Of a stretch of 64,000 nucleotides of DNA, positions 3,347-38,415 are shown one piece after another. The stretch covers positions 735,236 through 799,235 of the forward strand of contig OY969087.1 in the NCBI GenBank assembly GCA_963697525.1, in the 5' to 3' direction. Under the pieces are notes generated by a model. It ran no database searches. It was not told where the DNA came from and was given only the letters and a program-made list of their open reading frames with translations. The stretch comes from an uncultured delta proteobacterium (GTDB taxonomy: Bacteria; Myxococcota_A; Bradymonadia; Bradymonadales; Bradymonadaceae). Within the stretch, counting starts at the first letter, position 1. Every line of letters starts with the position of its first letter. The translations under genes and the position numbers were made by a program.

Positions 3347-3429
3347 GGTGGGGCAGGGGTCTGGGGGTCCAGGGGTCGAGGAATCCGGGGTCCCACGGAC
3401 CCCGAAGTTGGATATAACACCGCTGTCGC

Positions 3430-4440
3430 TCAATACAAGCCCTGAAGCTCGGGCTTGAGCTCCCGGCTCATCAAATCGGAGACCGCCTCGCGGGTGGATT
3501 TATCCTCGTAGAGCACCTTGTAGACCTGCTCGCAGATGGGCATCTCCACGCCCAGCTCGCCGGCCAGGCTGTGCACGCTCTTGGAGGTCTTGACGCCCTC
3601 GGCGACCATATTCATCTCGCCCAAGATCTCCTCGAGCGAGTAGCCCTGGCCGAGCTTGAAGCCCACCGAGCGGTTGCGGCTCAAGCCCCCGGTGCAGGTG
3701 AGCACCAGGTCGCCCATGCCCGCCAGGCCCGACAGCGTCAGCGGGTTGGCGCCGATGCTCACCGCCAGCCGGCTCATCTCGTGCAGCCCGCGGGTGATCA
3801 TGCCGGCCATCGAATTCAGCCCTAACTCCATGCCGGCCACGGCGCCGGCGGCGATGGCAATGACGTTTTTGACGGCCCCGCCGATCTCCACCCCGATGAC
3901 GTCGGTGCTGGTATAGGCGCGAAACACATCGTTGCTGAACACCCGCTGGACGCGCTGGGCGAGCTTGTGATTGTAAGAGGCCACGGTCACCGCCGTGGGC
4001 TTCTTGGCAGCGACTTCTTTGGCAAAACTCGGCCCCGACAAGTACACCAAATACGGATGGCAGTACTCGGGCAAGACATCCTCGAGGATGTCGCTGACCA
4101 GCATCTGGGTTTCGTTTTCGATGCCCTTGGTGGCGCTGACAATGGCGGTCGCCGGCGGGATGATGTCGGCGACCCGGCTGATCACCGAGCGCAGCACGTG
4201 GCTGGGCACCACCGACACGATCATATCACTGTCGCTGACCACCGACTCCAGATCGCAGGTCGCCACCAGGTTGTCGGGCAACTCGAAGCCCGGCAAATAC
4301 TCGGTATTCTCGTGCTTCTTGTTGATGATCGCCGGCAACGGCTTTTCATGCACCCACACCAGCACGTCGTGGCCGTTTTCGGCCAGTAGTTTCGCCAGGG
4401 CCGTGCCCCACGATCCGCCTCCGATGACGCCGATATTCAT
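3430..4440 (-). CDS. gpsA: NAD(P)H-dependent glycerol-3-phosphate dehydrogenase
   Basis: N-terminal Rossmann motif IGVIGGGSWGTALA, GpsA core motifs GVEIGGAVKNVIAIAAG and MVAEGVKT, and length 336 aa. Confidence 0.9.
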   Translation of the reverse strand: MNIGVIGGGSWGTALAKLLAENGHDVLVWVHEKPLPAIINKKHENTEYLPGFELPDNLVATCDLESVVSDSDMIVSVVPSHVLRSVISRVADIIPPATAIVSATKGIENETQMLVSDILEDVLPEYCHPYLVYLSGPSFAKEVAAKKPTAVTVASYNHKLAQRVQRVFSNDVFRAYTSTDVIGVEIGGAVKNVIAIAAGAVAGMELGLNSMAGMITRGLHEMSRLAVSIGANPLTLSGLAGMGDLVLTCTGGLSRNRSVGFKLGQGYSLEEILGEMNMVAEGVKTSKSVHSLAGELGVEMPICEQVYKVLYEDKSTREAVSDLMSRELKPELQGLY

Positions 4441-4640
4441 GTAAACCTCAGTGATCGAGTTATTGAGTGATCGAGTGATCGAGTAAACTACAACTGCATA
4501 GCTACAACTGCGTCCGCCCGCCCTGACCGTGACCGTGACCGTGATCGCGTGATCGTGATCGTGATCGTGATCGTGACCGGCCGTTCCCCGCGCCTCAGCG
4601 CAAGAACTCGATCACTCCCTCACTCGATCACTCCCCTCAC
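4441..4640. repeat. Microsatellite (GTGACC/GTGATC)n flanked by inverted GTGATCGAG / CTCGATCAC repeats, intergenic
   Basis: Direct reading: gtgatcgagt x3 at 4449–4485, (gtgaccgtgatc)n at 4526–4580, ctcgatcact x2 at 4603–4640. Confidence 0.75.
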
Positions 4641-5146
4641 CGGCTGCGCCGCCGGAGCATGCGCAACGTCTCCGCGGGATGTCCAAACACCTCGTGCAGC
4701 CGGCGGTTGGCGTCGCGCATCTCCTGGACGAGGTCGTCGGCGATGGCGTCGACCAACACGAACGCCGCCGGGCGGCGCGCCTCGAAGAGGTCGGCAAATG
4801 CCTCGCGGGTCAGGCGCAGCACCTGGCTTCGCTCCAGCGGGGTGCCCGCGCTGCCGTGCGGCCACGGGTAGACCAGGGACGACAGCGTCATCAGCGAGCC
4901 CGGCTCGGTGATCTGGTCGCGGCGTTGGCCGTCGGGCTGGACGCGGTAGCTGATCTCGACGCGCCCGGCCAACAGAATATAGGCCGCGTCTTTGACATCA
5001 CCAGGCGCCCATAACGCCTGGCCGGGCATGACCGTCAGGTGTTCGCCGGCGTCGACGAGCTCGGCGAGGTCGGCGCGCTCCAGCCCGGACAAGAGCCCCT
5101 GCTCGGCGAGGATGTCGACATCTTGGGTTGCGTCTGCCATGGACAA
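4637..5146 (-). CDS. Cyclic-nucleotide-binding (cNMP/CAP-family) domain protein
   Basis: cNMP-binding beta-roll signature: GQALWAPGDVKDAAYILLAGRVEI ... GSLMTLSSLV. 169 aa. Confidence 0.65.
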   Translation of the reverse strand: MSMADATQDVDILAEQGLLSGLERADLAELVDAGEHLTVMPGQALWAPGDVKDAAYILLAGRVEISYRVQPDGQRRDQITEPGSLMTLSSLVYPWPHGSAGTPLERSQVLRLTREAFADLFEARRPAAFVLVDAIADDLVQEMRDANRRLHEVFGHPAETLRMLRRRSR

Positions 5147-5166
5147 TCCTAAAGCGGGGGAGCCGG

Positions 5167-5829
5167 CTAGGCCTTTTTGAAGCGGCCGAGCATCTCGTGG
5201 ACCTGGGATTCGAAATTGTCGAGGTATTGCGCGGGGTCCTCGAAGACCTCCTCGACGCGCGCGTCGGTCTGGCGGCGGCGCTCGCCGAGGATGCGCGCCA
5301 GGCGCAAGATGATCTTGTAGGCCGCCGGCCGGTGCGCGGCGCGCAGCTCGTCGAAGGAGTCGCGGCCCAGCTTAAAGATGGACGCGTCGCTGATCACCTC
5401 GACGGTGGCCGAGCGCGGCGCCCCGGCGATAAGCGACATCTCGCCGACGACCGTGCCCGAGCCCAGCATCGCCAGGATGACGTCCTCGCCGGCGGGCGTG
5501 GTCGCGCGCACCTGCAGCTCGCCGGATTCCACGATATACAGCGCGTCGGCCTCGTCGCCCTGGCGAAATAGCTCCTCGCCGGCGGGCACCGTCAACGGCT
5601 GACAGGCGCCCACCACCTCGCGCACCTCCTCGGGGGCGAGCTTCTCGAAGAGCTCGATGGAGTGGAACACCGACTCGGCATCGCCGGTGACCTCGGCGGC
5701 GGAGGTCGACCCGCCCAGGCCGCCCTCGCCGTCGGGGATGCTCGGGCGCATCGTGACCGTCTCGCTCAGAATCGGCCGCCCCTTCCTCCATCGACTCGTC
5801 GATCGACTCGTCGGGCGAGCCGCTGCCAT
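5167..5829 (-). CDS. Cyclic-nucleotide-binding domain protein (alternative start at 5751)
   Basis: GEELFRQGDEADALYIVESGELQV ... GEMSLIAG matches a cNMP-binding domain. The N-terminus is R/S-rich; an internal ATG at 5751 gives a 194-aa alternative. Confidence 0.6.
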   Translation of the reverse strand: MAAARPTSRSTSRWRKGRPILSETVTMRPSIPDGEGGLGGSTSAAEVTGDAESVFHSIELFEKLAPEEVREVVGACQPLTVPAGEELFRQGDEADALYIVESGELQVRATTPAGEDVILAMLGSGTVVGEMSLIAGAPRSATVEVISDASIFKLGRDSFDELRAAHRPAAYKIILRLARILGERRRQTDARVEEVFEDPAQYLDNFESQVHEMLGRFKKA

Positions 5830-22048: not shown

Positions 22049-23421
22049 TTACGCGGCCTTCGTGGTGGTCAGCCCGCGAATGGACGCCTCCATGCCGCCC
22101 TCCTCGCGGTTTTGCAGCGTGAGCGTCCACCCGTGCAGCTCGCAGACGCGCCGGGCGATGGACAGCCCGAAGCCCTGCCCGCCGGGGCGGCGCGTGCGCG
22201 CCTCGTCGACGCGAAAGTCGCGGTCGGTCAGGTGTTCGACCATCTCGGCGGGCACGCCCGGCCCGTCGTCGATGACCCGCAGATCGAAGGCCCCGTCGAC
22301 CGGCTCGAGCACCACGCTGACGTGGCCGCCGGCGGAGTTGTACTGGATGGCGTTCTGGACGAGGTTGCTCAGCGCCTGCTCGACCAGCGTGGAGTCGCAG
22401 TCGAACTCGATGGCCTCCGGGGGCACCGCCCAGTTGAGCTCGACGCCCTTCTGCTCGGCCAACGGCTGGTGGCGCGCGGCCACCCGCTCGACGATCTCCC
22501 CCATATTGCACCGATGGATGGTCAGCTCTTCGCCGCGGCGATCCAATCGGGCGGCCGCCCCCATATTGGAGATGAGCGCGGCGATATAATGGGCCTCCTC
22601 CATCGCCGAGGCCGCCAACGCCGCGGCGTCCTCGTCGTCTTCGAGCTGGCGCTGCAGCTTGCGGATGCGATGCTGGACCACCGTCAGCGGGATGGCCAGA
22701 TCGTGGGTGGTGTTGGCGATATACTCGGTCAGCGCGCGGTCGCGCGCCTCCAGCTCGTCGACCGTCTCGCGCACCCGGTCGCCGGCGGCGTTGAACGCGC
22801 GCGCAAGCTCGCCAATCTCGTCGTTGGCGTCGGTCTCCGCGTCGACCTGGTAGTCCGGCCCGCCAGCCTCTTCGATGGCCTGGGTCAGCCGCCGGATGCG
22901 CCGCACCATCGGCCCGGCGGCGACCAGCGCCGTGAGCACCAGCACGATGAAGGCGACCACCGCCTGCAGCGCCACGTCGGCCATGAAATGGCGCGGCCCG
23001 CGCCCCGGCCGCTTGGGCCAGTACACCGCCACCACCGAGCACGGCGTGTTCGGCCAGGGCGTGCGAATGGCGGTCACCCCGCCAAAGCGCGGGTTGCGCC
23101 AAAAATCCTCGCTGGCGGTGTCGTCGCCGCTTCGCAGCGCGCCGATCACATCCGACGGAAGCGGCGGCGCGTGGCGGTTGGCCGAACGAAAATCGGCCCC
23201 GTAACCAAAGATCATAAACCCGTGGCGCACGCGCAGGTGAAACTTTTCGGGCCGCTCCAAGCAACGCCCGCCCCCGCGCGCCTCCATGCGCGCCGAGATC
23301 CGGCTGGCCACCCGCTCCTGGAAGGCGCGCCGCTCCCCGTACACCCGAAACACGGTGAACAACACCATCACGGGCACCACGATCGCCGCCAGGGTCAACG
23401 CCAATTTCGGTCTAAGTTTCA
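22049..23421 (-). CDS. Sensor histidine kinase (TM–HAMP–HisKA–HATPase_c)
   Basis: Start MKLRPK overlaps the response-regulator stop (ATGA). H-box TTHDLAIPLTVV; N/G boxes LVQNAIQYN, DDGPGV, GQGFGLSIA. Confidence 0.85.
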
Positions 23422-24102
23422 TGCCTCGCTTCGCTTCGCTGAGTGATCGAGCTTGTAGCCGATGCCCCACACCGTGGCGACAAGCTTGCCGGCCTCGCCG
23501 AGCTTCTTGCGAATGCGCGAGATGTGGACGTCGAGGGTGCGCTCGGTGCCTTCGCTCTCCTCGGGCAGGGCGCGCTCGACCAATTGGCGCCGGGTGATCG
23601 CCATGCCCGGCCGGCGCGCCAGCGCGGCGAGGATGTCGAACTCCGCGGGGGTCAGGTCGACCGGTTGGCCGTCGACGGCGACCGTGTGCGCCTCGAAGTC
23701 GATGGCCAGCGGGCCGAACTCCCGATCGGCCTGGCGCCGCATCACCGGCCGGCGAAGCCGGGCGCGGATGCGCGCCAACAGCTCCTCGGGCCAAAACGGC
23801 TTGGTCATATAGTCGTCGCCGCCCAGCTCGAAGCCGCGAAGCTTGTCGTGGGTCTCCTGGCGCGCCGTCAAAATGATCACCGGCACGTCCGATTGAGTGC
23901 GGTATTTTTTGAGCACGTCGAAGCCGTGTTTGCCCGGCAACATCAGGTCGAGCACCACCAGATCGTAGTCCTCGATGGCCTCGAAATACGCCTCCGAGCC
24001 ATCCTTGATCCAGGTAACCTCGAAGCCCTCCTCGTCGAGCGACTCGAATAATTCGTCGCCCAGCGCGAAATCATCTTCGACCAATAAAATGCGATCAGTC
24101 AT
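23419..24102 (-). CDS. OmpR-family response regulator
   Basis: Receiver domain ILLVEDD ... DLVVLDLMLPG ... ILTAR plus a winged-helix output LTPAEFDIL ... GIGYKL. Confidence 0.9.
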   Translation of the reverse strand: MTDRILLVEDDFALGDELFESLDEEGFEVTWIKDGSEAYFEAIEDYDLVVLDLMLPGKHGFDVLKKYRTQSDVPVIILTARQETHDKLRGFELGGDDYMTKPFWPEELLARIRARLRRPVMRRQADREFGPLAIDFEAHTVAVDGQPVDLTPAEFDILAALARRPGMAITRRQLVERALPEESEGTERTLDVHISRIRKKLGEAGKLVATVWGIGYKLDHSAKRSEA

Positions 24103-24232
24103 GGGCCTGGGGGGGCTGTGGGTTGTCGGGGGGAGCCGCGGTGAGCAATTTCATAGGAGGCGTTTCCTCCGAATCGACGATGGACTACAATGTAGTGAGA
24201 AAAGCGACCGTTTCTCGCAAGGGGACCTGGGC

Positions 24233-24532
24233 ATGTTTTATATTTTAGCAGCAGTGATTCTTCTGATCTGGGTCGCTCTCATTGCCATGATGGTCCGCGC
24301 GGTCATGAGCACGCCCTCGTGCCCGGAATGCGGCGGCACCAGCATCCAATCGGTCGACATCCGCACCTCCACCATCGTCATCGACGGCGCCAAAGTGCCC
24401 GCCGCCTGGATGTATCGGCGTTGCCGCGACTGCGGCGCGCGGCTCAAATGGGACGTCGGCCAGGACAAATGGGTCGAGCTCGAACCCGGCGAATGGGACG
24501 ACGTGGTGCGCAACGCCGAGGAAGTCCCCTGA
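24233..24532 (+). CDS. Small membrane-anchored zinc-ribbon protein (hypothetical)
   Basis: N-terminal TM (ILAAVILLIWVALIAMMV) and a CPECGG ... CRDCG four-Cys ribbon. 99 aa. Confidence 0.35.
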   Translation: MFYILAAVILLIWVALIAMMVRAVMSTPSCPECGGTSIQSVDIRTSTIVIDGAKVPAAWMYRRCRDCGARLKWDVGQDKWVELEPGEWDDVVRNAEEVP

Positions 24533-24546: not shown

Positions 24547-25815
24547 CTACCTCTCCGGTTCATCCTTTCGGCGCGGATAATGCCCGTTCGACAACACGAA
24601 AGTATCGAAGCGCGGCGAGCATGACGTCGACGCCGCGCCCGCCTTCGCGTCGGCCTTCGGCGAGGCGTGCGACGCCTTCTCGAGCGCACAACTCGCCTGC
24701 AGCGCCCGCTCGACGAACGCCACCGGCAACGCCGTATGCGGGCGCACCATCAGCGTCGTCGCCTCTGGATAGCGCCGGTGAACCTTAGCCAGCGTCGCGT
24801 ATAGCCACGCCCACGGATACGCCTTCGGATCGCCCAGATGCTGGTCGTCGACGCGCGCCGATTCCAACACGTCACCGACCCGGCTGGGCCCGTATTTGGA
24901 GACCACCTGCACCTCGATCCGATGCGGCCGCAGGTGGACGACGACGTGGGTCAGCGCCGGCAGCTTCTCGGCTTGCTTGGCCCGAGCGTCGCAATACCGG
25001 CCCTGCCGGAGGCCTAATCCGAGGCCGCCAAACGTCCCGATCAACTGCGAATTGCCCGAAGCGCCCAGTGTACCCATCGCGACGTTGCCGTAGCCCGTGC
25101 CCAACCCGCCCAGCCCACCGACGCCAGCGGCCTGCCCGCTGCCCATTAGCCCGCCGAGGGCGCCGAGCTGACTCGTGGCCGACGATGCTTGCGTCGATGT
25201 CTCCTTGGCCCGTTGGGCGGGCGCCACAATCGGGGCGCGCTCGTCGATGGGCAACATCCGTTGGTTCAAAAAATCCATGCTCAGGCGAAGATGCATCATC
25301 TGCCCGCCGCCAACCTCCAGCGTCAGCCACTTCACTCCGGCTTCGCTCAGGGTGTACGCCACCGCCAACAGCGTGTCCGAGGCCACCGCCGGATCGATGT
25401 CGACGCGCACCTGCCGCGCCCCCAGCGGCTTGCCGTCGACCAGCCGCCGACGCCGCGCCACGGTCATCTCATCGGCCACCGCCTCGCCGATCGCCTTGAC
25501 GTAAAACGAGTTCGACGAGCGAAATTGGTCGCGCGCGATCAGCCCGTGCTTCAACGCCACGACCTTCTTGCCGCCGACGGCCACCCCGTCCGCCGAGATC
25601 TTAAGCTGGGCGTCCACCGCCGCCGGCGGCGTGGGCTGGTCGGCCGAGTCGGGCGTCCCACCCGGTGTCGCCCACACGCTGTCCGCGGCCGGCGCGGGCG
25701 GCACCGGCGCGCTCGCCGACGCACGAGGCGCCCCATCACGCACGGGCGCCCCGGTCTGGCAGCCCGCCAGCAACGCCACCACGCATCCACCCACGATGTT
25801 CCACCAACACCTCAT
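24547..25815 (-). CDS. Hypothetical lipoprotein with a G-rich low-complexity middle region
   Basis: Lipobox VVALLAGC at the internal Met of ORF 24547..25872. No recognisable catalytic motifs. Confidence 0.45.
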   Translation of the reverse strand: MRCWWNIVGGCVVALLAGCQTGAPVRDGAPRASASAPVPPAPAADSVWATPGGTPDSADQPTPPAAVDAQLKISADGVAVGGKKVVALKHGLIARDQFRSSNSFYVKAIGEAVADEMTVARRRRLVDGKPLGARQVRVDIDPAVASDTLLAVAYTLSEAGVKWLTLEVGGGQMMHLRLSMDFLNQRMLPIDERAPIVAPAQRAKETSTQASSATSQLGALGGLMGSGQAAGVGGLGGLGTGYGNVAMGTLGASGNSQLIGTFGGLGLGLRQGRYCDARAKQAEKLPALTHVVVHLRPHRIEVQVVSKYGPSRVGDVLESARVDDQHLGDPKAYPWAWLYATLAKVHRRYPEATTLMVRPHTALPVAFVERALQASCALEKASHASPKADAKAGAASTSCSPRFDTFVLSNGHYPRRKDEPER

Positions 25816-25999
25816 CCGCTCCTCCGCTCCACGCCCCGCGCCGCAGGCGCCACGCCGCGCCGCAGGCGCCACAAATTAGCTTCAGAAACTCTTAAGATCC
25901 ACCGCGTACATTACACATGAAGCCACGGAGAAGCGACTCCTCCGGCCTCATGTGATACGCTGACATCATTCTCTCTCGACCCGAGAAGGAGCAAACATC

Positions 26000-26728
26000 A
26001 TGAAGTTCAAAAAAATCCTGATCGCTGGACTGGTTACTTGTTCGATGGCTGCCGGCTCGTTCGCCCTGGGCGCCAGCGCCTTCGCCTGCGGCGGCAAGCA
26101 CGGCCACAAGCACGGCCGCTGGTCGCAGATGACCGACGAGCAGCGCCTCGAGGCGATGGACAAACACCTCGACAAGCGCATGGCCCGCCTGGACAAAAAG
26201 CTCAACCTGAGCGCTGCCCAGCACAAGCAGGTGCGCCAGATCTTCGAGTCCACGCGCACTCAAATGATGGACATCCGCCAGCGCCACAAGGGTGATCGCC
26301 AGGGCGCCCGCAAGGAGGCGCGCCAGGTCTTCCAGCAGAGCAAGGCGAAGATCAAAAAGGTGCTCACTCCCGAGCAGCAGCAAAAGTTCAAACAGCTTCG
26401 CCAGAAGCGCCGCCAGCACCACGCCCGCCGGCGCATGCACCACATGTTCCGCCGCCTGGACAAGGCGCTCGACCTGAACGCCCAGCAGGAAAAACAGGTC
26501 AAGCAGATCATCAAAGAGACCCACCAGCAGGTGCGCCAGGCGTTCAAAGATAACACCGACCGCAAGGCGCGCCGTCAGGCCATCCGCGCGGCCTTCAAAA
26601 ACGGCGGCGACAAGATCGAGGCCGTCCTCAACGCCGACCAGAAGGCCAAATTCCAGAAGATGCGCGAGCGCATGAAGAAGCGCTTCGGCCATCGCCATCA
26701 CCGCCGCGGCCCCGGCGAGCAGATGTGA
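26000..26728 (+). CDS. Spy/CpxP-like periplasmic protein (LTxxQ repeats)
   Basis: Signal peptide, then repeated LSAAQHKQV, LTPEQQQKF, LNAQQEKQV and LNADQKAKF modules; highly basic and helical. Confidence 0.7.
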   Translation: MKFKKILIAGLVTCSMAAGSFALGASAFACGGKHGHKHGRWSQMTDEQRLEAMDKHLDKRMARLDKKLNLSAAQHKQVRQIFESTRTQMMDIRQRHKGDRQGARKEARQVFQQSKAKIKKVLTPEQQQKFKQLRQKRRQHHARRRMHHMFRRLDKALDLNAQQEKQVKQIIKETHQQVRQAFKDNTDRKARRQAIRAAFKNGGDKIEAVLNADQKAKFQKMRERMKKRFGHRHHRRGPGEQM

Positions 26729-26778: not shown

Positions 26779-27402
26779 ATGACGACCAAAACCTCCGACG
26801 ACCACCACGGCCGCGACGAGCTCATCGCCGCGGCCTCCCAACTCTTCGCCGACCGCGGCTACACGGGCACGACGACCACCGCCATCGCCCGGCGCGCCGG
26901 CGTCTCCCAACCCCTGCTGTACCACCACTTCGGCTCCAAAAAGGGCCTGTGGCGCGCGGTCATCGACACGCTGTTCGGCCAGCTCAAAGACGAGCTCGAT
27001 CGCGTCACCCACGAGCTCGCCAAGATGCCCCGCCCCCAGCGGCTCGCCGAGCTGCTGCGCGCCTTCGTGCGCTTCAGCGGGCACCACCCCGAGCTCGCCA
27101 GGCTCATCCGCACCGAAAGCGGCGGCGGCGGCGACGCCTTCGACGACTTATACGGCCGCTGGCTCGAAGACCTGGTCAGCTTCTTCAACGGCGAACTCAC
27201 CGCCGCCCACGACGACGATACGCTGCGCCCGATCGACCCCACCTGCCTGTATTTCATCATCGTGGGCGCGGCCACCGAGCCGTTCGTCCAGCCCGAGATC
27301 GCCCGGCGCAACTTCGGCCTCGATCCCACCGACGACGGCTTCATCGACCGCTACGCCGACGCCATGGTCGACGCGCTGTTGCGCGGCGTGCTCGCTGGCT
27401 AG
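26779..27402 (+). CDS. TetR/AcrR-family transcriptional regulator
   Basis: The N-terminal HTH YTGTTTTAIARRAGVSQPLLYHHFGSKKGLW is a TetR_N signature. Confidence 0.85.
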   Translation: MTTKTSDDHHGRDELIAAASQLFADRGYTGTTTTAIARRAGVSQPLLYHHFGSKKGLWRAVIDTLFGQLKDELDRVTHELAKMPRPQRLAELLRAFVRFSGHHPELARLIRTESGGGGDAFDDLYGRWLEDLVSFFNGELTAAHDDDTLRPIDPTCLYFIIVGAATEPFVQPEIARRNFGLDPTDDGFIDRYADAMVDALLRGVLAG

Positions 27403-27409: not shown

Positions 27410-27625
27410 CTCCTTCGGCATCTTGGCCTCGTTCGCCTTTCCTTCGGTGCGTGGGCATCTTGGCCTCGTTCGCCTTTCCTTCGGTGCGTGGGCATCTTGG
27501 CCTCGTTCGCCTTTCCTTCGGTGCGTGGGCATCTTGGCCTCGTTCGCCTTTCCTTCGGTGCGTGGGCATCTTGGCCTCGTTCGCCTTTCCTTCGGTGCGT
27601 GGGCATCTTGCCCTCGTTAGCCGAA
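27410..27625. repeat. 37-bp tandem array (about 5.8 copies): tcggtgcgtgggcatcttggcctcgttcgcctttcct
   Basis: Direct reading. Contiguous identical units with no spacers. Lies between the convergent stops of the TetR gene and the CYP102 remnant. Confidence 0.9.
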
Positions 27626-30013
27626 GACGTCCGCCACGTAACGCCCATCGGCCTCCAGGGCCTCCAGCCAGGCCTTGGCGTCGGCGTCGGTGCAGCCGGT
27701 TCGCTCCTGGTGGATGCGCGCGAGCGTATCGCGCACGGCGGGAGCCATGCGCTGGCCGTCGCCGCAGACGTAGACGTGGGCGCCGTTGTCGAGCAACGCG
27801 CCGACGCGATCGCGCTCGGCCCACAGGCGGTGTTGGACGAAGGTGATGTCGCCGTCGGGTTTTTTGAAAAAAGCCGGGTGGACCTCGACGAGGCCGGCCT
27901 CTTCGAAGGCGGCGAGTTCGTCGCGATACAGGAAGTCGACCTCGGGGTGGTCGCAGCCGAAGAAGAGCGCGGCCGCGCCGAGGTCGTCGCCGGCTTCTTG
28001 GCGAGCGGCGCGCTCCTGCAAAAAGCCTCGGAAGGGGGCGAGCGTGCGGCTGTCGGCGGGCGGGTGAAAGTCGGGCCCGGAGGGGCGCACGGTGACCTCG
28101 ACGTGCTCGCCGGGGCGACGGCGGGCGAGGAAGTTCGAGCAGGTGCCGCGGTAGCGGCCGTGGCCCGACCAGGCGGGGGCGTTGACGACGGCGACGGTGA
28201 GCGCGCAGCGCGTGTCGTCGACCGAGGGCGACGAGGAGATGGAGTATTGGCGCGGGCGCATCGGCGGCAGCATCTCCAAAAACTCGGCAAAGCCGAGGGT
28301 GCATGAAGCGGTCTGCTCGAGGAGGTCGAGCAGGCTGACATTCGTGTCGAGCACCTCGGCGCGGTAGCGCTCGGGGTCGTTGGCCAGGGCCTGTAGGCGC
28401 TGCTTTTCGGGCGGGCACGGGGTGAGCTCCGCCAGACGGCCGAGGTCGCGGCGGGTGGCCGGTTGGCCGAGCTCGACGTAGCGGCCCAGGAGCTCGGCGA
28501 CGGCGATGGGTCGGCCGGTCGGCAGCGCGCTGGTCTCGGCGCGGGCGCTCGACAGGCGGATGAGTTCGTCGAGTTCGAAGCCGAAACGCTCGGCAGCGCG
28601 CGCGACGCGCTCGGGGTCGTTCTCGGGGAGCACCGCCAGGTAGTCGCCGACCTCGTAGCTCAGCCCGTCGGGCAGCTCCAGCTCGACGTGGCGCTTCGAG
28701 CGCCCCAGCGGCGAGGACATGTCGACGAGCTCGCGGTTTTCGAGCACCGTCGCCAGGCGGGTGCCGTGGGCGTCGACCAGCGGGTCGGCGGCGGCGTCGA
28801 GGCGCTCGATCTCGTAGAGCGGCCCGTCGTCGACCGCCTCGACGGTGACGTCGAATTCGTCTTCGAGCGTCGGCCACACCGGCTCGTACCAGGCGTCGAA
28901 GTCCCCGAAGAAGTCGCCACGCGCGTCGGCCTCGCCGCGCTCCATGAGGCGCTCGGCGCCGGCGCGGCTCAAGGCCTCGTCGACCCGGCGCGGCACCGCC
29001 TGGTAGGTCGCCGACCAGTCGCGGTTTCCGCAGCCAAAGACCGCGTAGCGCACGCCGTCGAGCGCGCCGGGCTCGAGTCCGTCCAGCCACTCACAGAACA
29101 CACGGGCGTTGTCCGGCGGCTCGCCGTTGTACGAGGCGGTGACCACGGTCAGCGCGCCGCCGGTGGGAAGGTCGCCGACGTGGTCGTCCATGGCGGCGAG
29201 CTCGGCGTCCCAGCCGCGCGCCTGGGCGTCGCCGGCGATGCGCCGGGCGAAGGCTTCGGCGGAGCCGGAGTTGGAGCCGTAGAGGACGAGCAGGGGCGTG
29301 CCGTGCGCGGCAGCGCTTGGCGCCTGCAGCGCGGGGCTTGGGGCTTGGCGCCTGCGGCGCGGGGCTTGGAGCGGAGCATCGGAGGAGCGCAGGCTTGGCG
29401 CGGAGGAGCGGGGGTGGGCCTGGATGTGGAGGGCGGCGGGCTTGAGGGTGAGCGTTTCCTTGATGTCGAGCTGGTAGTCGTCGACGTCGACGAGATCAAA
29501 GCGGCGAAGCATCATCGCGAGGACGAGCTTGGCCTCCTGCATGGCGAACGGGCGGCCAATGCAGGCGCGTTGGCCGCGGCCGAACGGCTTCCAGGCGTTG
29601 GCCGGGATCTGGTCGATGTGCTCGGGGGCGAAGCGCTCGGGATCGAAGCGCTCTGGATCGTTCCACACCGTCGGGTCGCGGTGGAGCATGGGGAGCAGCA
29701 CGAACAGCTCCTCGCCGGCTTCGACGCCGTAGCGCCCGCCAATGGTGGTGTCTTCCTTGGGGTACAGCGCGTAGGCCGGCGCCGTGGGCCACAGCCGCAA
29801 CGATTCGCGAAGCACCTGGTCGATGTAGCCCAGCTCGCGCAGGTGCTCGAAGCGCGGCGCGTCGGCGCCGAGCACGCGGTCGGCTTCCTCCTGGGCGCGG
29901 GCGAGCACCTCGGGGTGCTGAAGGAGTTGGTAGATCGTAAACGAGAGCAGGCCGCTGGTCTTCCCGCGCTCGCCTACGGCGCCACCACGCCTAAGCCTTG
30001 TTAAACCCGACAA
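27617..30013 (-). pseudogene. 5'-truncated CYP102-family (P450 BM3-like) P450–NADPH-reductase fusion gene; the first ~250 aa of the heme domain are missing
   Basis: The ORF begins mid I-helix (GLLSFTIYQLLQHPEV). It contains the heme-loop FGRGQRACIGRPFA, the flavodoxin LLVLYGSNSGSAE and FAD/NADPH domains. No P450 N-terminus exists in any frame upstream, and the next gene starts at 30107. Confidence 0.7.
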
Positions 30014-30106
30014 AATTCACTACAAACATCGCCGTACTCTTTCACCATGACGCAGCGAGGGTCGACCCGGGTGCGCACCACGATGAGCGCGCTGTAGGTC
30101 CGCAAC

Positions 30107-30916
30107 ATGCAACAGTTTCTCCAGATCGCGCTCGCCTTTCCCACGGTCGTCTTTACGGCCGTACTCTTGGTATTGGGGCTGTATTGGTTGTTGGTGATCC
30201 TGGGGGCGCTGGACCTGGACACCTTCGACATGAGCGCCCACGTCAATATGCACGGCCACGTCGACGCCCATGTGCACCTGGACGCCGACGTCGACCCCGA
30301 CGGCATGTTGCCGGGCCCGGACCTCATCGAGGCGGTGATGAGCGCGTTAGGGATGGGCACCGTGCCGCTGACGGTCATCCTGAGCTTTCTGACGCTGACC
30401 GCCTGGATGGTCTCGTTCGCCGCCGTCTACTACCTGGCGCCGATGATCGGCGGGCTGACCTCGCTGTACGCCGCGTTGTTCGGCGTGGGCAGCTTCGTGG
30501 CCGCGCTGCCGGTGACGATGCTGATCATGCAGCCGTTCATCCAGTTGTTCGACACCAAGGGTGAGAAGCACGGCGGCGAGTCGCTCATCGGCTCGGTCTG
30601 CCGGGTGACCACCAGCCGGGTCGACGCCAAATTCGGCCAGGCCGACGTCGACGACGGCGGCGCCGGGCTTCTGCTGCCGGTACGCTGTGAGGCCCAAAAC
30701 AACGGGCTGAGCCGCGGCTCCAAGGCGCTGATCATCGACTACGACGACGAGCAGCACGCCTACATCGTCGAGCCCTACGACGTGCTCGTGGGCGACGACA
30801 AAAAGCAGCACGACGGCGATGCCGAGGCCATCCTCGACCAGAAGATCACCGCGGCCGCCGAGGAACAAGAGGCCAACGAACAGCAACCCGAATCCGCGAC
30901 TTCCACCCACAAATGA
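30107..30916 (+). CDS. NfeD-like / YqiJ-like (DUF1449-type) membrane protein with a C-terminal OB-fold
   Basis: TM1, a His/Asp-rich loop (HVNMHGHVDAHVHLDADVD), two more TMs, then GSVCRVTTSRVDAKFGQADVDDGGAGLLLPVRC (NfeD C-terminal beta domain). Sits immediately upstream of a flotillin gene, as in yqiJK. Confidence 0.6.
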   Translation: MQQFLQIALAFPTVVFTAVLLVLGLYWLLVILGALDLDTFDMSAHVNMHGHVDAHVHLDADVDPDGMLPGPDLIEAVMSALGMGTVPLTVILSFLTLTAWMVSFAAVYYLAPMIGGLTSLYAALFGVGSFVAALPVTMLIMQPFIQLFDTKGEKHGGESLIGSVCRVTTSRVDAKFGQADVDDGGAGLLLPVRCEAQNNGLSRGSKALIIDYDDEQHAYIVEPYDVLVGDDKKQHDGDAEAILDQKITAAAEEQEANEQQPESATSTHK

Positions 30917-30931
30917 CGCAGGTGACCACTC

Positions 30932-33070
30932 ATGCATGACTTCAACGCCATGAATTACGCGTGGCTCTTCTATCTCGTCGGCGGTGCCGTCATCCTCGGC
31001 GGCATCATCGCCATGTTCATGAAGTTTTACGTCAAGGTCGACCAGGGCCAGGCCCTCATCGTCAACACGATGAAGGACATCAAGGTCACCTTTACCGGCG
31101 CCGTGGTGCTGCCCATCGTGCACCGCGCCGAGATCATGGACATCTCGCTGAAGACCGTCGAGATCGATCGACGCGGCAAGGAAGGGCTGATCTGCGCGGA
31201 CAATATCCGCGCCGACATCAAGGTCACCTTCTTCGTGCGCATCAACAAAACGCGCGAGGACGTGCTGCGCGTCGCCCAGTCGGTGGGCTGCAAGCGCGCC
31301 AGCGACCAGGACAAGATCGAGGAGCTGTTCGTCTCCAAATTCTCCGAGGCGTTGAAGACCGTCGGTAAGCAGCTCGAATTCGAGGCGCTGTACAAAGAGC
31401 GGGTGCACTTCCGCGAGAAGATCATCGAGATCATCGGCCAGGACTTGAACGGCTACGCCCTGGAAGACGCCGCCATCGACTTCCTCGAGCAGACCCCCGT
31501 CGAGAGCCTCGACCCCCAGAATATCCTGGACTCGCAGGGCATCCGGAAGATCACCGAGCTGACCTCGGAGCAGAAGTTTCGGACCAACGAGTTCGCCAAC
31601 AAGTCCAAAAAGGACATCGGCAAAAACGACCTCGAGACCAAGATGACCATCTTGGAGTACGAGCGCCAGCAGGCCGAGGCCGAGGCCAAGCAGCACCGCG
31701 AGATCGCCGTCGTCCAGGCGCGCGAGCAGGCCGAGGCCCAGGAGCTGACCTCCAAGGAGCAGGCCCGCGCCCAGGTGGCCACGCTCAAGGCCCAGCAGGA
31801 GATCGAGGTCCAGAAGATCAACAAGCAGCGCGAGCAGGAGGTCGCCCAGAAAAACCGCGAGCGCGTCATCGCCGTGGAGACCGAAAACGTCGAAAAAGAG
31901 CGCCAACTCCAGGTCATCGCCCGCGAGCGCGAGACCCAATTGCAGCGCATCTCCAAGGACAAAGAGGTCGAGGTCGAGAAGAAGAATATCGCCGAGATCG
32001 TGCGCGACCGCGTCTCGGTGGACAAGACCGTGGCCGAAGAGGAAGAGCGCATCAAAGACGTGCGCCGCATCGCCGAGGCCGAGCGCGAGAAGAAGGCCGC
32101 CGTCGTCGCCGCCGAGGGCGAGGCCGAGCAGGCCCTGGTCAAGGACATCAAGAAGGCCGAGGCCGCCGAACAGGCCGCCCAGCACAAGGCCAAGCAGAAG
32201 GTCATCGAGGCCGACGCCGACCTCGACGCCGCCGAGCGCACCGTCAAGGCCAAGAAGTTGGTCGCCGAGGGTGTCACCGCCGAGGAGGCCGCCCCGGGCT
32301 TGGCGCAGGTCCGCGTCAAAGAAGCCGACGCCCAGGCCAACGAGAAGCAGGGCCTGGTGGAGGCGCGCATCACCAAAGAGAAGATGATGTCGCAGGCCGC
32401 GGGCAAAGAAGAGCAGGGCATGGTCGAGATTCGCCTGACCCAGCAACGCGCCGAGGCCATCGAAAAAGAGGGCATGGCTCAGGCCAAGATCATCCGCGAG
32501 AAGGCGGTCGCCGAGGCCGCCGGCGAGCAGGAAAAAGGCCTGGCGCAGGTGCGCATCAAGGAGGCCAGCGCCGACGCCATCCGCAAAGAGGGCACCGCCC
32601 ACGCCGACGTGCGCGCCCAGCAGGGCGAAGCCGAGGCCAAGGCCATCCTCGACCGACTGGCCGCCGAGGCCAAGGGCCTGACCGAGAAGGCCAAGGCCAT
32701 GAAAAACTTCGACGAGGAGGGCTTCAACTTCGAGAAGTTCCAGATGCAGCTCGACCTCGAGCGCGACCTCACCCTCGAGAAGCTCGCCAAGGGCATCGAC
32801 ATCGCCAAGGCCCGCTCCGCCGTGCTCAGCGAGGCCCTCAAGGCCGCCAATATCAGCATCGTGGGCGGCGACACCTCGGTGTTGGACAACTTCACCAAGT
32901 CCATCACCGCCGGCAAGATGCTCGAGGGGTTCATGGACACCAGCCCCACCGCGCGCAGCCTGCTCGACAAGGTCATGGGCAAGGCCGCCAAGGCCGCCAA
33001 GGCCGACGGCGCGGCCAAACCCAACGGTGAGGTCGAAGAGGCGATCACTGATATGACGCCGGGTGAGTGA
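30932..33070 (+). CDS. Flotillin-family (SPFH/Band-7, YqiK-like) protein
   Basis: N-terminal TM, an SPFH domain (QGQALIVNTM ... VTFFVRI), a long EA-rich coiled coil and flotillin-type C-terminal repeats. 712 aa. Confidence 0.85.
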   Translation: MHDFNAMNYAWLFYLVGGAVILGGIIAMFMKFYVKVDQGQALIVNTMKDIKVTFTGAVVLPIVHRAEIMDISLKTVEIDRRGKEGLICADNIRADIKVTFFVRINKTREDVLRVAQSVGCKRASDQDKIEELFVSKFSEALKTVGKQLEFEALYKERVHFREKIIEIIGQDLNGYALEDAAIDFLEQTPVESLDPQNILDSQGIRKITELTSEQKFRTNEFANKSKKDIGKNDLETKMTILEYERQQAEAEAKQHREIAVVQAREQAEAQELTSKEQARAQVATLKAQQEIEVQKINKQREQEVAQKNRERVIAVETENVEKERQLQVIARERETQLQRISKDKEVEVEKKNIAEIVRDRVSVDKTVAEEEERIKDVRRIAEAEREKKAAVVAAEGEAEQALVKDIKKAEAAEQAAQHKAKQKVIEADADLDAAERTVKAKKLVAEGVTAEEAAPGLAQVRVKEADAQANEKQGLVEARITKEKMMSQAAGKEEQGMVEIRLTQQRAEAIEKEGMAQAKIIREKAVAEAAGEQEKGLAQVRIKEASADAIRKEGTAHADVRAQQGEAEAKAILDRLAAEAKGLTEKAKAMKNFDEEGFNFEKFQMQLDLERDLTLEKLAKGIDIAKARSAVLSEALKAANISIVGGDTSVLDNFTKSITAGKMLEGFMDTSPTARSLLDKVMGKAAKAAKADGAAKPNGEVEEAITDMTPGE

Positions 33071-36000
33071 TGTCCCAAGACGCCAAACAACCCGCGGTCT
33101 CCGCCTCCAACTACGACATCATCCGCAAGCGCCTCGAAGACCAGGCGCGCGAGCTCGGCGAGCGCACCGACGCGCTCAACGACAAGCGCGCCCAGATGTT
33201 CGGGGGCGTGGAGATGACCGTGGTCGGCCAGGAGCGCGTGCGCACCGAGCATAACTGCGTGCCGCGCGACATCGTCAACGTCGGCGGGCGCATGCTCTTT
33301 GGCTACAACGTCAAGTTGGGGCTGAAGGCCAAGACCGACGTCGACGACGTCTTCAGCCTGCACGCCTTCCAGAAGGACGACGACGGCTTCAAGCTCGAGC
33401 CTCTGGCGCAGGACACCAAGGATAACTTCCTCGGCGAAGAGAAGTTCGTCCGCGATTTCGACGAGCTGTACACCTACTACAAGGACGCGCGCTTAAGCCA
33501 ACTCATCAAGCTGGACACCCGGCTTTTGGCGGTCTTCCAGATCGGCACGACCCTCGAAGACCGCCGTGTGCTTCGCTGGGGGCTCGACGCGGTCGACAAC
33601 ATCCAATATATCGACAACGCCGGGGACCGGGACTTGACCCCACCCGAGCCCCACGACTTCCAGTGGCGCACGGTCACCCGCGAGGACCACCACAAGGGCA
33701 AACACCCCCACGTCAGCATCCTCGACGAGGTCTTCGTCGAGACGGTCGGCGGCGACCTGACCATCAAGATCGAGGACAACACCGACGACGGCAAAGGCAT
33801 CTACAACGAGCCCGTCGACGACCTGCACCAGTCGCTGGGCGACGGCGAATTTCTCTTCGCCAAGATCGGCAACCTCATCGTCCTCAAGATCTTGCCCTAC
33901 CGCGAAGAAAAGTGGCGCTACTTCGTGTTCAACACCCTCACGAAACAAGTCGAGCGCATCGACGCCATCGGCCAATCGTGCATCCAACTGCCCGACGAGC
34001 AGGGCATCGTCTTTCCCGGCGGCTTCGTGCTGTCCAACGGGCAGTCCAAAAACTTCGACGCCAACGTCGAGGGCATGCGCGTCCACCAGGTCGTCCGCTC
34101 GGCCAACGGCGAGGACGTGCTGTACGTGTTTTACCGCCCGCAGGACGGCAGCTACCTGCTCTTGGCGTACAACGTCATCCGCAAGGACGTCCAAAACCCG
34201 ATCAACTGCCACGGCTACTCGCTGTTCGACGACGGCACGATGATCGTGTTTCGTTTCCAAGGTGACGAGCCCACCCGCGTCCACCCGATGCAGATCTGGC
34301 AGACGCCCTTTGTCAGCGACGAGCACGCCGCCAACCAGCCCCAGGACGACTCGCTGTTGTCCAATATCGGCAACGCCGAGTTGGTGCGCGGCATCTCCGA
34401 CGCCTTCAGCCTATGCTCGATGATCGACGATCTCGAGCCGTCCATGGCGGTCTACGAGGCGCTGATCACCAGCGCTCAGCGCCTGCTCGACGCCTACTTC
34501 TGGCTGGACAAGGACGAGGTCGGCGACCTCGCCGCAGTCGTCGGCGACATCATCGACACCGCTGGCCTGGTGGTCGACGAGTTTCAGAAGGTCACCGCCC
34601 TCAAAAAGAAGGCCAAAGAGGCGCTCGCCGACGCCGAGCAAAAGCAGCGCTCGCTGTTTACCGACGTGCGTTACAACGACTGGAAGCGCATCGAGCGCTT
34701 CGTCGAGGGGCTGGACAAATTGCGCCAGCAGCGCGGCCGGATCATCACCTTGAAGGAGACGCGCTACATCGACGTCGACCGCCTCGACGAGCTCGAGGCC
34801 GAGGTCACCGAGCGCTACGACGACTTGAGCAAGGCCACCGTGGAGTTCCTGCTCGACGACCAGGCCTTAAAGACCTACCAAGACGGCCTCGACGAGCTCG
34901 AAAGCAAGGTCGACAACCTCGAGAATACCAAGCAGGCCGCCGAGCTCGACGACAAGCTCGACACCATCAACAAGGGCCTGAATTTACTCACCGAAGTCGT
35001 CAGCGGCCTGCAGGTCGACGATCCCACCAAGCGCACGAAAATACTGGAGAATATCGGCGAGGTCTTGAGCCGCCAAAACCGCGACCGCGCCAAGCTCGAG
35101 CGCAATCAAAAGCAGCTCGCCGAACAAGAAGGCAAGGCCGAGTTTGCCGTGCAATTCCAGCTCTTTACCCAGAGCGTGACCAGCGCGTTGGGCATGTGCG
35201 ACACACCCAAGGCCTGCGACGAGCAGTTGACGCGCATGATGGTCCAGCTCGAGGAGTTGGAGAGTCGGTTTAGCTCGTTCGACGGCTTTTTGACCAAGCT
35301 CGCCGAGAAGCGCGACGAGGTCTACGAGGTCTTCGAGTCGCGCAAACGCGCGCTGTTGGACGAGCGCCAGCGCCAGGCCAACAACATCGCCCGCAGCGCC
35401 GACCGCATCCTGTCGGGCGTGGTGCGCCGGGCGTCCAATATGGACTCGGTCGAAGACCTCAACGCCTACTTCGCCTCCGACGCCATGGTCATGAAGGTGC
35501 GCGACCTGGCCACAAAGCTTCGCGAGCTCGAAGAGGACGTGCGCGCCGACGACATCATCACCCAGCTCAAGGCGTCCAAAGACAAGGCCATCCGCCAGCT
35601 TCGCGACAAACTCGACCTCTTCGAAGGCGGCGACAACGTCATCAAGTTCGGCCAGCATCGCTTCAGCGTAAATACGCAGGCCGCCGAGCTGACCATGGTG
35701 CCCGACGGCGACACCATGGCGCTGCACATCACCGGTACCGAATTCCTGGAGTCCATCGACGACCCCGACTTCGCCAAAACGCGCCCGTTTTGGAACCAGC
35801 CGCTGGTCTCCGAGACCGACCAGGTCTACCGCGGCGAGTATCTGGCCGCGGCCATCGTCTTCGACGCCGAAAACGCCGCGAATGGCCTGACGGTCGCCGA
35901 GCTGCAGAAGCGGCGCAAAGACCCCGCCGAACTCAAAAAGCTCATCCGCGGGTATATGGACGAGCGCTTCGACGAGGGCTACGAGCGCGGCGTGCACGAT

Positions 36001-38415
36001 GAGGACACGGCCAAGATCTTGGACGCGTTCATGAGCATGTACGCCACCGCCGGCCTGCTTCGGTTCACCCCGGCGGCGCGGGCGCTGGCGACGATGTTCT
36101 GGGCGTTTGGCGACCAGCCCGAGCGACGCAAGAATTGGGCGCGCCGGGGCGTGAGCATGGGGCGTCTGCGCGAGATCTTCGGCCACGGCGAGCCGCTGAG
36201 GGCGTTGGGCGAGGAGTTGGCGGGAGAAATCGCGGACTTCATTGCAGCCACATCCTTCGGTGCCAGGGCTTCTAGCCCTGGTTTTAGTGAGGGAGTCATC
36301 GCCGAAGCCGGCCGCTACCTCGCCGAGGAGCTCGTCGACCAAACGCCCCGTTTCGTCGAATCCAGCGAGGCCACCGCCCTGCGCGACGCCTTCTTTAGCT
36401 ACCTCGACCAGAAGCACTCCCGCCTCGACTTCACCGAGGACCTCGCCCAGATCGAAGACAACCTCGAGGCGAGCTGGCAGCTCGTCGTCGCCTGGCTCGC
36501 CGGCTTCGCCCAGAGCCAGCTCGACGAGGACGTCAGCCACCTCATCCCCGAGGTAGCCGCGCTCGTTCTCACTGGCGACCATATCGAGCGTCAGACCGCC
36601 GAGGCGCGCACCACCGCCGAGGTGAGTGACCTGTTGGGCGACCATCCGCGCATCCAAAACGGCGCGCTGAAGCTTCGCCTCGACGAGTTTTTGACCCGGC
36701 TTCGCCGCTACACCGACGAGCACGTGCCCGCCTACCGCGAGTACAAGCGCCTGAGCCGCGCGTTGCTCGACCGCGAGCGCCAGCGGCTGCGCGTCGACGA
36801 CCTCGACCCACAGGTGTTCAGCGGTTTTGTGCGCAACCAGCTCATCGACGAGGTCTACCTGCCGCTCATCGGCGACAACCTCGCCAAGCAGATGGGCACC
36901 GTCGGCGAGGACAGCCGAAGCGACCGCAGCGGCTTGTTGCTTTTGATCTCGCCGCCCGGCTACGGCAAGACGACCCTGATGGAGTATATCGCCGACCGCC
37001 TCGGCCTGATGTTCATGAAGATCAACGCGCCGTCGTTGGGCCACGACGTCGTCTCGTTGGACCCCGCGGAGGCGCCCAACGCCACCGCCCGCCAGGAGGT
37101 CGAAAAGATCAACCTGGCGCTCGAGATGGGCAATAACGTCATGCTCTACCTCGACGACATCCAGCATACCCACCCGGAGTTTTTGCAAAAATTCATCTCG
37201 CTATGCGACGCCACCCGCCGCATCGAGGGCGTGTGGAACGGCAAGACCAAGTCCTACGACCTGCGCGGCAAGCGCTTCTCGGTGGTCATGGCCGGCAACC
37301 CCTACACCGAAAGTGGCGAGCGCTTCCAGATCCCCGACATGCTCGCCAACCGGGCGGATACGTACAACCTGGGCGACATCCTGAGCGGCAAGCAGGGCGC
37401 CTTCGAGATGAGCTACATCGAAAACGCGCTGACCTCCAACAAGGTCACCGCCCCGCTGGTCACCCGCGAGCGAAGCGACATCGGCCGGTTCATGAAGATG
37501 GCCGGCGGCAAGCAGATCCCGCTGACCGAATTCGACTACGCCTACTCCTCGGTGGAGGCCGGCGAGATCGTCAACGTGCTGCAGAAGCTGATGGACATTC
37601 GCGACGTCGTCTTGAAGGTCAACCAGCAATACATCGAGTCGGCGGGCAAAAAAGACGAGTACCGCACCGAGCCGCCCTTCCAGTTGCAGGGAAGCTACCG
37701 CAACATGAACCGCATGGCCGAGAAGGTCGCCTCGGCGATGAACGACGCCGAGGTCCAGGAGGTCATCGACAACCACTACAACCAGGAGTCCCAGACGCTG
37801 ACCACCGGCTCCGAGCAAAACTTGCTCAAGCTCGCCGAGCTTCGCGGCAAGCTCACCGACGAGCAAAAACAGCGCTGGGCCGAGATCAAGCGCGAGTACA
37901 CCCGCCGCAAGATGATGGGCGGCGACGACGATCCCATCTCGCGCGTCGCCGGCCCGCTGGCCACGCTCGTCCAGCGCCTCGAAGACGTGCACAGCACGCT
38001 GGAAGCCGACAACGTCTCCACCCACCTCGGCGACATCCGCGGCGTACTTGAAAAGGCTTTGCAATCGGCCGAAAAGGCCGCGAAGCAGCGCCCCCACGTG
38101 GAACTGCAACAAATCCCGGCAAACCAGCAGTCGCAGGCCGCCCAACAGGCCTCCCCCGCCGCCGTCGAAGCCCTCTCCGAGGCGCTTTTGTCCCTGCAGC
38201 AGGCCAAACTCGAGGTCCAGGTCGTCGGCGACATGCCCACCAAACTAGGCGAAATCTTGGAGAGCCAGCTCGGGCTTATCGAGAGCGCGATCTTGCCGCT
38301 GGCCAAATTCGTCTACCGCGAGGCCGAAGACGACCAAAAGCGCGACGAGCAGCTCGTCGAGGTCATGCGCAAGCTCGACGCCCTGGGTCGCCAGGCGGTG
38401 CCGGAAGGCGAGTAA
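33067..38415 (+). CDS. Giant (1782 aa) coiled-coil protein with a dynein/MoxR-like AAA+ ATPase domain; function unknown
   Basis: ATGA overlap with the flotillin stop. Walker A LLISPPGYGKTTLMEY (nt about 36955), Walker B NVMLYLDDIQ (nt about 37140), sensor/Arg region NRADTYNLGD. Long coiled coils at aa 480–1000 and 1500–1782. No other family motif recognised. Confidence 0.75.
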   Translation: MMSQDAKQPAVSASNYDIIRKRLEDQARELGERTDALNDKRAQMFGGVEMTVVGQERVRTEHNCVPRDIVNVGGRMLFGYNVKLGLKAKTDVDDVFSLHAFQKDDDGFKLEPLAQDTKDNFLGEEKFVRDFDELYTYYKDARLSQLIKLDTRLLAVFQIGTTLEDRRVLRWGLDAVDNIQYIDNAGDRDLTPPEPHDFQWRTVTREDHHKGKHPHVSILDEVFVETVGGDLTIKIEDNTDDGKGIYNEPVDDLHQSLGDGEFLFAKIGNLIVLKILPYREEKWRYFVFNTLTKQVERIDAIGQSCIQLPDEQGIVFPGGFVLSNGQSKNFDANVEGMRVHQVVRSANGEDVLYVFYRPQDGSYLLLAYNVIRKDVQNPINCHGYSLFDDGTMIVFRFQGDEPTRVHPMQIWQTPFVSDEHAANQPQDDSLLSNIGNAELVRGISDAFSLCSMIDDLEPSMAVYEALITSAQRLLDAYFWLDKDEVGDLAAVVGDIIDTAGLVVDEFQKVTALKKKAKEALADAEQKQRSLFTDVRYNDWKRIERFVEGLDKLRQQRGRIITLKETRYIDVDRLDELEAEVTERYDDLSKATVEFLLDDQALKTYQDGLDELESKVDNLENTKQAAELDDKLDTINKGLNLLTEVVSGLQVDDPTKRTKILENIGEVLSRQNRDRAKLERNQKQLAEQEGKAEFAVQFQLFTQSVTSALGMCDTPKACDEQLTRMMVQLEELESRFSSFDGFLTKLAEKRDEVYEVFESRKRALLDERQRQANNIARSADRILSGVVRRASNMDSVEDLNAYFASDAMVMKVRDLATKLRELEEDVRADDIITQLKASKDKAIRQLRDKLDLFEGGDNVIKFGQHRFSVNTQAAELTMVPDGDTMALHITGTEFLESIDDPDFAKTRPFWNQPLVSETDQVYRGEYLAAAIVFDAENAANGLTVAELQKRRKDPAELKKLIRGYMDERFDEGYERGVHDEDTAKILDAFMSMYATAGLLRFTPAARALATMFWAFGDQPERRKNWARRGVSMGRLREIFGHGEPLRALGEELAGEIADFIAATSFGARASSPGFSEGVIAEAGRYLAEELVDQTPRFVESSEATALRDAFFSYLDQKHSRLDFTEDLAQIEDNLEASWQLVVAWLAGFAQSQLDEDVSHLIPEVAALVLTGDHIERQTAEARTTAEVSDLLGDHPRIQNGALKLRLDEFLTRLRRYTDEHVPAYREYKRLSRALLDRERQRLRVDDLDPQVFSGFVRNQLIDEVYLPLIGDNLAKQMGTVGEDSRSDRSGLLLLISPPGYGKTTLMEYIADRLGLMFMKINAPSLGHDVVSLDPAEAPNATARQEVEKINLALEMGNNVMLYLDDIQHTHPEFLQKFISLCDATRRIEGVWNGKTKSYDLRGKRFSVVMAGNPYTESGERFQIPDMLANRADTYNLGDILSGKQGAFEMSYIENALTSNKVTAPLVTRERSDIGRFMKMAGGKQIPLTEFDYAYSSVEAGEIVNVLQKLMDIRDVVLKVNQQYIESAGKKDEYRTEPPFQLQGSYRNMNRMAEKVASAMNDAEVQEVIDNHYNQESQTLTTGSEQNLLKLAELRGKLTDEQKQRWAEIKREYTRRKMMGGDDDPISRVAGPLATLVQRLEDVHSTLEADNVSTHLGDIRGVLEKALQSAEKAAKQRPHVELQQIPANQQSQAAQQASPAAVEALSEALLSLQQAKLEVQVVGDMPTKLGEILESQLGLIESAILPLAKFVYREAEDDQKRDEQLVEVMRKLDALGRQAVPEGE

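Follow-up and report, generated by a model that had tools for sequence, protein, structure and literature searches.

Organization of the locus

The DNA analysed here is a stretch of 64,000 nucleotides (the window) from contig OY969087.1 of an uncultured delta proteobacterium. On its minus strand lies an open reading frame (ORF) of 798 codons whose product resembles the cytochrome P450 family CYP102 from the middle of the heme domain to the C-terminus, and a TetR-family regulator gene faces it tail to tail. The members of this family, P450 BM3 among them, are self-sufficient enzymes in which a P450 is fused to its reductase. The original prediction, made from the sequence alone, had described the ORF as a 5'-truncated CYP102 gene that starts inside the I-helix region, retains the Cys-ligand loop and is convergent with the TetR gene, and all of this was confirmed by the ORF listing, the Pfam matches and a phmmer search. 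The features of the locus are listed below, where FMN is flavin mononucleotide and FAD is flavin adenine dinucleotide.

26779..27402, plus strand: TetR-family regulator gene, 207 amino acids, intact; TetR_N and TetR_C_9 domains
27417..27622, no strand: tandem array of 5.6 copies of a 37-bp unit, five copies identical; occupies nearly all of the DNA between the two facing stop codons
27617..30013, minus strand: putative CYP102 remnant of 798 codons and a stop codon, with a mechanically assigned TTG start
27731..28042, minus strand: remaining NAD(P)-binding domain (NAD_binding_1, residues 658-761)
28042..28043, minus strand: site of an in-frame deletion of 30 bp, flanked by codons T657 and L658
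28130..28762, minus strand: FAD-binding domain (FAD_binding_1, residues 418-628), with the RPRQYSISSSP motif
28889..29287, minus strand: FMN (flavodoxin) domain (Flavodoxin_1, residues 243-375)
29315..29370, minus strand: two tandem copies of a 28-bp unit in the heme-FMN linker, 96% identical
29441..29959, minus strand: C-terminal third of the P450 heme domain, with the distal half of the I-helix (TSGLLSF), the ExxR motif (ESLR) and the Cys pocket
29543..29584, minus strand: Cys-ligand loop FGRGQRACIGRPFA, residues 144-157, with Cys151
29960..30106, no strand: junction DNA without CYP102 homology, 147 nt from the breakpoint to the divergent neighbour; holds the first 18 codons of the ORF

Four Pfam matches keep the domain order of CYP102, namely the C-terminal part of p450, Flavodoxin_1, FAD_binding_1 and NAD_binding_1. 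The p450 match covers residues 19-191 and only positions 278-454 of the 462 in the profile, compared with positions 2-457 in the homologues P0002 and P0005, and PF00067 is not matched end to end. In the phmmer search against PDB sequences, residues 18-797 were aligned with residues 266-1032 of a full-length P450 BM3 chain (8dme_A) with an E value of 2.3e-214. All top matches were CYP102 proteins with 54-65% identity, which assigns the ORF product to this family by similarity. The Cys-ligand motif FxxGxRxCxG is present as FGRGQRACIG at residues 144-153. The fused FMN and FAD domains score on par with those of full-length relatives, with 97 bits for Flavodoxin_1 and 128 bits for FAD_binding_1. 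The public gene call (P0001) is a protein of 763 amino acids that starts at the GTG codon at 29908.

Truncation within the I-helix

The homology to CYP102 begins at window position 29959 with the residues TSGLLSF, in the distal half of the I-helix and equivalent to about T269 of BM3. In a codon-by-codon comparison with eleven homologous loci, the nucleotide identity collapsed upstream of about 29960-29969, where the window reads CGC GGG AAG and the family reads CAC GAG ACS. The oxygen-activation motif A-G-H-E-T-T of the I-helix is not preserved: the family sequence is IAGHETTSGLL and that of the window is GERGK|TSGLL, with the homology starting from the second Thr only. Codons 1-18 of the ORF (29960-30013) thus fall outside the CYP102-derived sequence. 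The neighbouring divergent gene on the plus strand has a well-formed start at 30107, which is 93 nt from the TTG codon.

The search for the missing 5' part used residues 1-300 of six full-length homologues as tblastn queries on the 64-kb window in all six frames (word size 2, E up to 100). The CYP102 N-terminus was not found in any frame of the window; the sole match was the start of the remnant itself (residues 277-299 of P0002 against 29959-29891), and everything else had an E value of at least 0.04. As a positive control, the same type of search was applied to a metagenomic CYP102 locus (L081), and the heme-domain N-terminus was readily recovered directly upstream in a different frame. A shifted-frame continuation, which the original prediction had named as the result that would speak against it, was therefore sought and not found. 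The predicted absence of the heme-domain N-terminus from all frames held, although the loss amounts to about 268-276 residues and not to about 250. Likewise, the predicted distance of 94 bp to the next gene agrees with the 93 nt from the TTG codon, but 147 nt of unrelated DNA separate that gene from the start of the CYP102 homology.

The control locus is itself not intact. On this 68.8-kb metagenome contig from the European Nucleotide Archive, the CYP102 gene (1995-5169) was called as a protein of 722 amino acids (P0108), and a frameshift near locus position 2993 puts the first 338 residues in a different frame from the remainder. Either the sequence contains an error here or this gene is a second pseudogene that formed independently.

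Deletion in the NADPH-binding domain

In the alignment with BM3, a gap of 10 residues was observed at ADSRT|LAPFRGF, where 30 nt are gone between window positions 28043 and 28042. The deleted block is the family motif P-[MVIL]-[VI]-[ML]-[IV]-x-A-G-[TS]-G. In a MAFFT alignment of the remnant with 113 full-length homologues, every one of the 113 carries this motif, and four of its columns (P, A, G and G) are at least 97% conserved. We take the deleted block to be the first β-strand of the NADP(H) domain and the glycine loop that contacts the pyrophosphate of NADPH in the fold of ferredoxin-NADP reductase and cytochrome P450 reductase (CPR). Consistent with this loss, the NAD_binding_1 profile is matched only from position 8 on (35.7 bits), whereas the relatives match it from position 1 (50-60 bits). 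An intact NADPH-binding domain, with the β1 strand and the A-G-T-G loop, is thus not present. No convincing microhomology was found at the 30-bp deletion.

An AlphaFold2 model of residues 416-798 was confident as a whole, with a mean predicted local distance difference test score (pLDDT) of 89.6. Precisely at residues 650-658 the score fell below 50, and the model has no strand at this site. The model would agree with the loss of the β1 strand and the glycine loop, as supporting evidence only, since AlphaFold does not gauge stability.

The TetR gene and its orientation in relatives

The TetR gene encodes a full-length protein that aligns collinearly with its orthologues (41-66% identity), and 214 bp separate the gene from the stop codon of the remnant. 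In five relatives, a TetR orthologue was found directly upstream of a full-length CYP102 gene on the same strand, with a gap of 35-162 bp. The two closest relatives are among the five, which comprise the locus of the closest homologue P0002 (L082), a metagenome-assembled genome (MAG) labelled Lujinxingia vulgaris (L001), Archangium minus (L075) and two Myxococcales MAGs (L052 and L054). Three of the five loci include the complete downstream flank, and no second TetR gene was found in it. The TetR gene of the window is therefore adjacent to the CYP102 sequence as in the relatives, but it is not upstream of it and no promoter or operator spacer lies between them in that arrangement. Since TetR and CYP102 are co-directional in the relatives and tail to tail here, an inversion is needed besides the 5' deletion.

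The TetR regulator would thus be an orphan, as its presumed target gene appears to be dead and the ancestral operator spacer appears to be gone. A gene of the LTXXQ family (26000-26728) ends 50 bp before the TetR gene, and the two may be co-transcribed nowadays. In the L. vulgaris MAG, the spacer between TetR and CYP102 (8963-9070 of L001) contains a repeated or palindromic element, ATAGATTTAT...TCAGAACTCTGCTGA...ATAGATTTAT, which could be a candidate TetR operator. The GC content of this contig is far lower than that of the window despite the similarity of the proteins.

Preservation of the remaining coding sequence

Outside the two lesions, the coding sequence is well preserved. In the retained region, 164 alignment columns are at least 97% conserved, and the remnant departs from the family at four of them, all inside the deletion. 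The near-invariant positions outside the deletion are all kept (160/160). Among the full-length homologues, the number of departures at the 164 columns has a median of 1 and is 10 in the worst case. The GC content at third codon positions (GC3) of the remnant is 0.90, and that of the neighbouring genes is 0.85-0.93. Horizontal transfer was considered as a cause of the high GC content of the remnant (0.717, with a window mean near 0.65) and was rejected, because its GC3 is like that of the neighbours. The excess lies at the first codon position (GC1) and reflects the amino acid composition.

The two copies of the 28-bp unit in the heme-FMN linker differ in reading frame, one giving QAPRRRRQA and the other PSPALQAPS. 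If one copy is dropped, the parts of the protein before and after the linker no longer share a reading frame, and hence at least one further compensating indel must have occurred in the linker, which is 46 amino acids long compared with a family median of 41. The damage to the gene appears to be wholly structural, without decay by point mutations, which fits with either recent inactivation or continued constraint.

Proposed origin of the remnant and alternative explanations

We propose that the ORF is very probably the non-functional relic of a CYP102 gene once regulated by TetR, which was recently inactivated by an inversion with 5' truncation and also has the deletion in the NADPH site. In the ancestral unit, CYP102 would have lain 35-162 bp downstream of TetR with the same orientation. 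Later, in the lineage of the window, CYP102 or its 3' part would have been inverted relative to TetR, and the first approximately 270 codons would have been lost, presumably together with the promoter and the operator. The break inside the I-helix would then have been joined to the upstream region of an unrelated gene cluster that encodes a membrane protein, a flotillin-like protein and a DUF3686 protein, and a separate 30-bp in-frame deletion would have removed the first β-strand and the glycine loop of the NADPH domain. The truncation, the lack of the 5' part in the window, the motif deletion, the gene order in the relatives and the good preservation of the remaining sequence were observed directly, whereas the order and mechanism of these rearrangements, the loss of function, the lack of useful expression and the recency are inferred. 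The original prediction of a pseudogene derived by deletion was thus right about a truncated pseudogene, but deletion alone does not account for the position of TetR, whose geometry in the five relatives demands an inversion.

The ORF is shorter than all full-length homologues and has lost parts essential to the family, which makes it a pseudogene by an operational definition. Judged from the sequence, the remnant should be unable to form the P450 fold, since helices A-H, the β1 sheet and the I-helix acid-alcohol pair are missing. Binding of NADPH is not expected either, so that neither monooxygenase nor reductase activity would remain. Several observations weigh against this interpretation. 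The frame of 2.4 kb is open and all near-invariant residues outside the deletion are kept, as they would be under selection. Gene callers predict a product of 763 amino acids, and neither of the two small lesions, the 30-bp deletion and the duplication in the linker, disrupts the frame. The nearest relative is 65% identical, which is too distant to gauge relaxed selection, and the structure model gives no measure of stability. In addition, the inversion could have had either direction, and one event or several could have taken place.

The same observations could be explained by a working N-terminally truncated protein, translated from an internal start (for example the GTG codon at 29908, or a Met codon ahead of the FMN domain) and acting as a diflavin reductase or electron carrier. 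The open frame of 798 codons, the complete set of 160 near-invariant positions, the scores of the FMN and FAD domains, which match those of full-length relatives, and the public annotation of P0001 as a gene are in line with such a protein. The original prediction had offered this reductase-only protein as the alternative and had counted the NADPH domain among the retained parts; its statement on the FMN and FAD domains stood, but that on the NADPH domain did not, since 10 residues are deleted from it. The loss of a motif that no full-length homologue lacks, at the very site where the confidence of the model collapses, makes a functional reductase-only protein unlikely. Moreover, the product would bear a heme-domain fragment of about 180 residues that is unable to fold alone, and no homologue of such an architecture was seen; the shorter matches are cut by contig ends or frameshifted. 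A sigma-70 scan of the region found no promoter-like site, which is weak evidence in an organism of this kind, and no Shine-Dalgarno-like stretch was seen by eye at a suitable spacing upstream of either the TTG or the GTG. Taken together, a protein of this type seems very unlikely. A related possibility is that the ORF is expressed and kept for a new role of the FMN/FAD module, with a heme tail and without the canonical NADPH site; it might then, for example, carry electrons from a different donor, or interact with the orphaned TetR as a partner or decoy. If this were true, the conserved residues and the frame-preserving indels would reflect selection and not youth. We regard such a role as highly improbable.

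The gene could also be split, if a large inversion or insertion had moved the 5' third of the heme domain outside the window, to another part of the 7.5-Mb genome. The orientation of TetR demands an inversion in any case, and the DNA-level search covered the 64-kb window of that genome. On the other hand, no trace of the 5' part is present in the 64 kb, and if the gene had been broken once by a single inversion, its 5' part would still lie beside TetR, where it is not found. A complete fragment would also be expected among the best 120 matches to a CYP102 N-terminal query, and none of these comes from the source contig, although this is weak evidence against a relocated fragment because the listed proteins are all short (at most 482 amino acids) and P0002 itself is missing. 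The best 120 CYP102 homologues likewise include no protein of the source contig. A split gene is accordingly quite improbable in our estimate. Finally, a frameshift or misjoin in the sequencing or assembly could mask an intact gene. The 3' end of the ORF abuts a perfect 37-bp tandem array, which is of the type that confuses assemblers. However, no frame upstream encodes the N-terminus of a heme domain, and the upstream DNA is the well-formed start of a divergent gene. The junction in the I-helix is free of repeats, a clean loss of 30 bp is atypical of read errors, and a truly frameshifted CYP102 gene, as in L081, looks quite different. An artefact is therefore extremely unlikely.

With a non-functional CYP102 remnant as the preferred explanation, the locus matters mainly for annotation: the public call of a 763-amino acid P450/reductase should be marked as a pseudogene, and the TetR next to it as an orphaned regulator. 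The locus provides a tidy case of gene death by structural mutation, with inversion, truncation, a small deletion and a tandem duplication preceding decay by point mutations. CYP102, its linkage to TetR and pseudogenes are all well known, and the locus is an ordinary pseudogene that opens no new question.

Comparison with known systems

Compared with CYP102A1 (P450 BM3) of Bacillus/Priestia megaterium, the remnant is collinear from about T269 to the C-terminus with the same order of domains, and it keeps the Cys-ligand loop and the ExxR, RxYS and CGD motifs. The first 268 or so residues of BM3, with the substrate channel, helices A-H and the acid-alcohol pair E267/T268, have no counterpart in the remnant, and neither do the 10 residues PLIMVGPGTG of BM3. 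The closest proteins are the Myxococcota-type CYP102 orthologues: P0002 is 65% identical to the remnant, the protein of L001 62%, and those of Archangium, Cystobacter and Chondromyces 59-61%, and nothing more than 65% identical is known. These orthologues are 1046-1109 amino acids long with complete heme and NADPH domains, and a subset of them has a linked TetR orthologue upstream on the same strand.

In Bacillus, CYP102 is controlled by Bm3R1/FatR, a TetR-family repressor that is displaced by fatty acids (PMC3814354). The relatives of the present locus likewise have TetR directly upstream of CYP102, where a cognate repressor would be expected, so that a linkage resembling the Bm3R1 arrangement occurs in Myxococcota-type genomes; this likeness concerns the gene arrangement alone. 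Searches of the TetR protein against NCBIfam gave generic TetR matches only, below threshold. Unlike the Bacillus module, the window would have a dead target gene, a missing ancestral promoter/operator region and an orphaned regulator. Stand-alone diflavin reductases such as CPR and CysJ have the same FMN-FAD-NADPH order as the remnant, but they possess an intact NADPH-binding strand and loop and no N-terminal P450 fragment. The NCBIfam cysJ matches of the remnant were weak (229 bits, with a cut-off of 668).

Neighbouring genes and sequence elements

The last partial copy of the 37-bp array overlaps the TAA stop codon of the remnant, and the array sits where the inferred inversion would place one junction. 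No mechanistic link between the array and the inversion was found, and no other copy of the unit occurs in the window. A role of the array as an RNA or terminator was considered and rejected, as there was no Rfam match and the folding z-scores were -0.9 and -0.3; over the whole region, Rfam gave nothing above noise. A mobile element was also rejected as the cause of the rearrangement, since the genes tested in the 20-43 kb part of the window showed no transposase or integrase domain. Inverted repeats at the two junctions were limited to GC-rich matches at the level of chance.

The break is bordered by three same-strand genes (30107-38415) that encode a membrane protein of 269 amino acids, a flotillin-like protein of 712 amino acids and a DUF3686/AAA protein of 1782 amino acids. 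The second looks like an SPFH/flotillin protein, although neither it nor the 269-amino acid protein had a Pfam or NCBIfam match, and the third consists of DUF3686, DUF7902 and an AAA ATPase domain. A metagenome scan with the flotillin-like neighbour returned no relatives. P0001 and four neighbouring proteins form singleton clusters, and the three genes at 30107-38415 are singletons at 90% identity. On the other side of the locus, two ORFs at 24547-25872 (441 amino acids) and 23975-24532 (185 amino acids) have a coding-like GC3 and no Pfam match, and they adjoin a two-component system that comprises a histidine kinase (22049-23794) and a response regulator (23419-24102).

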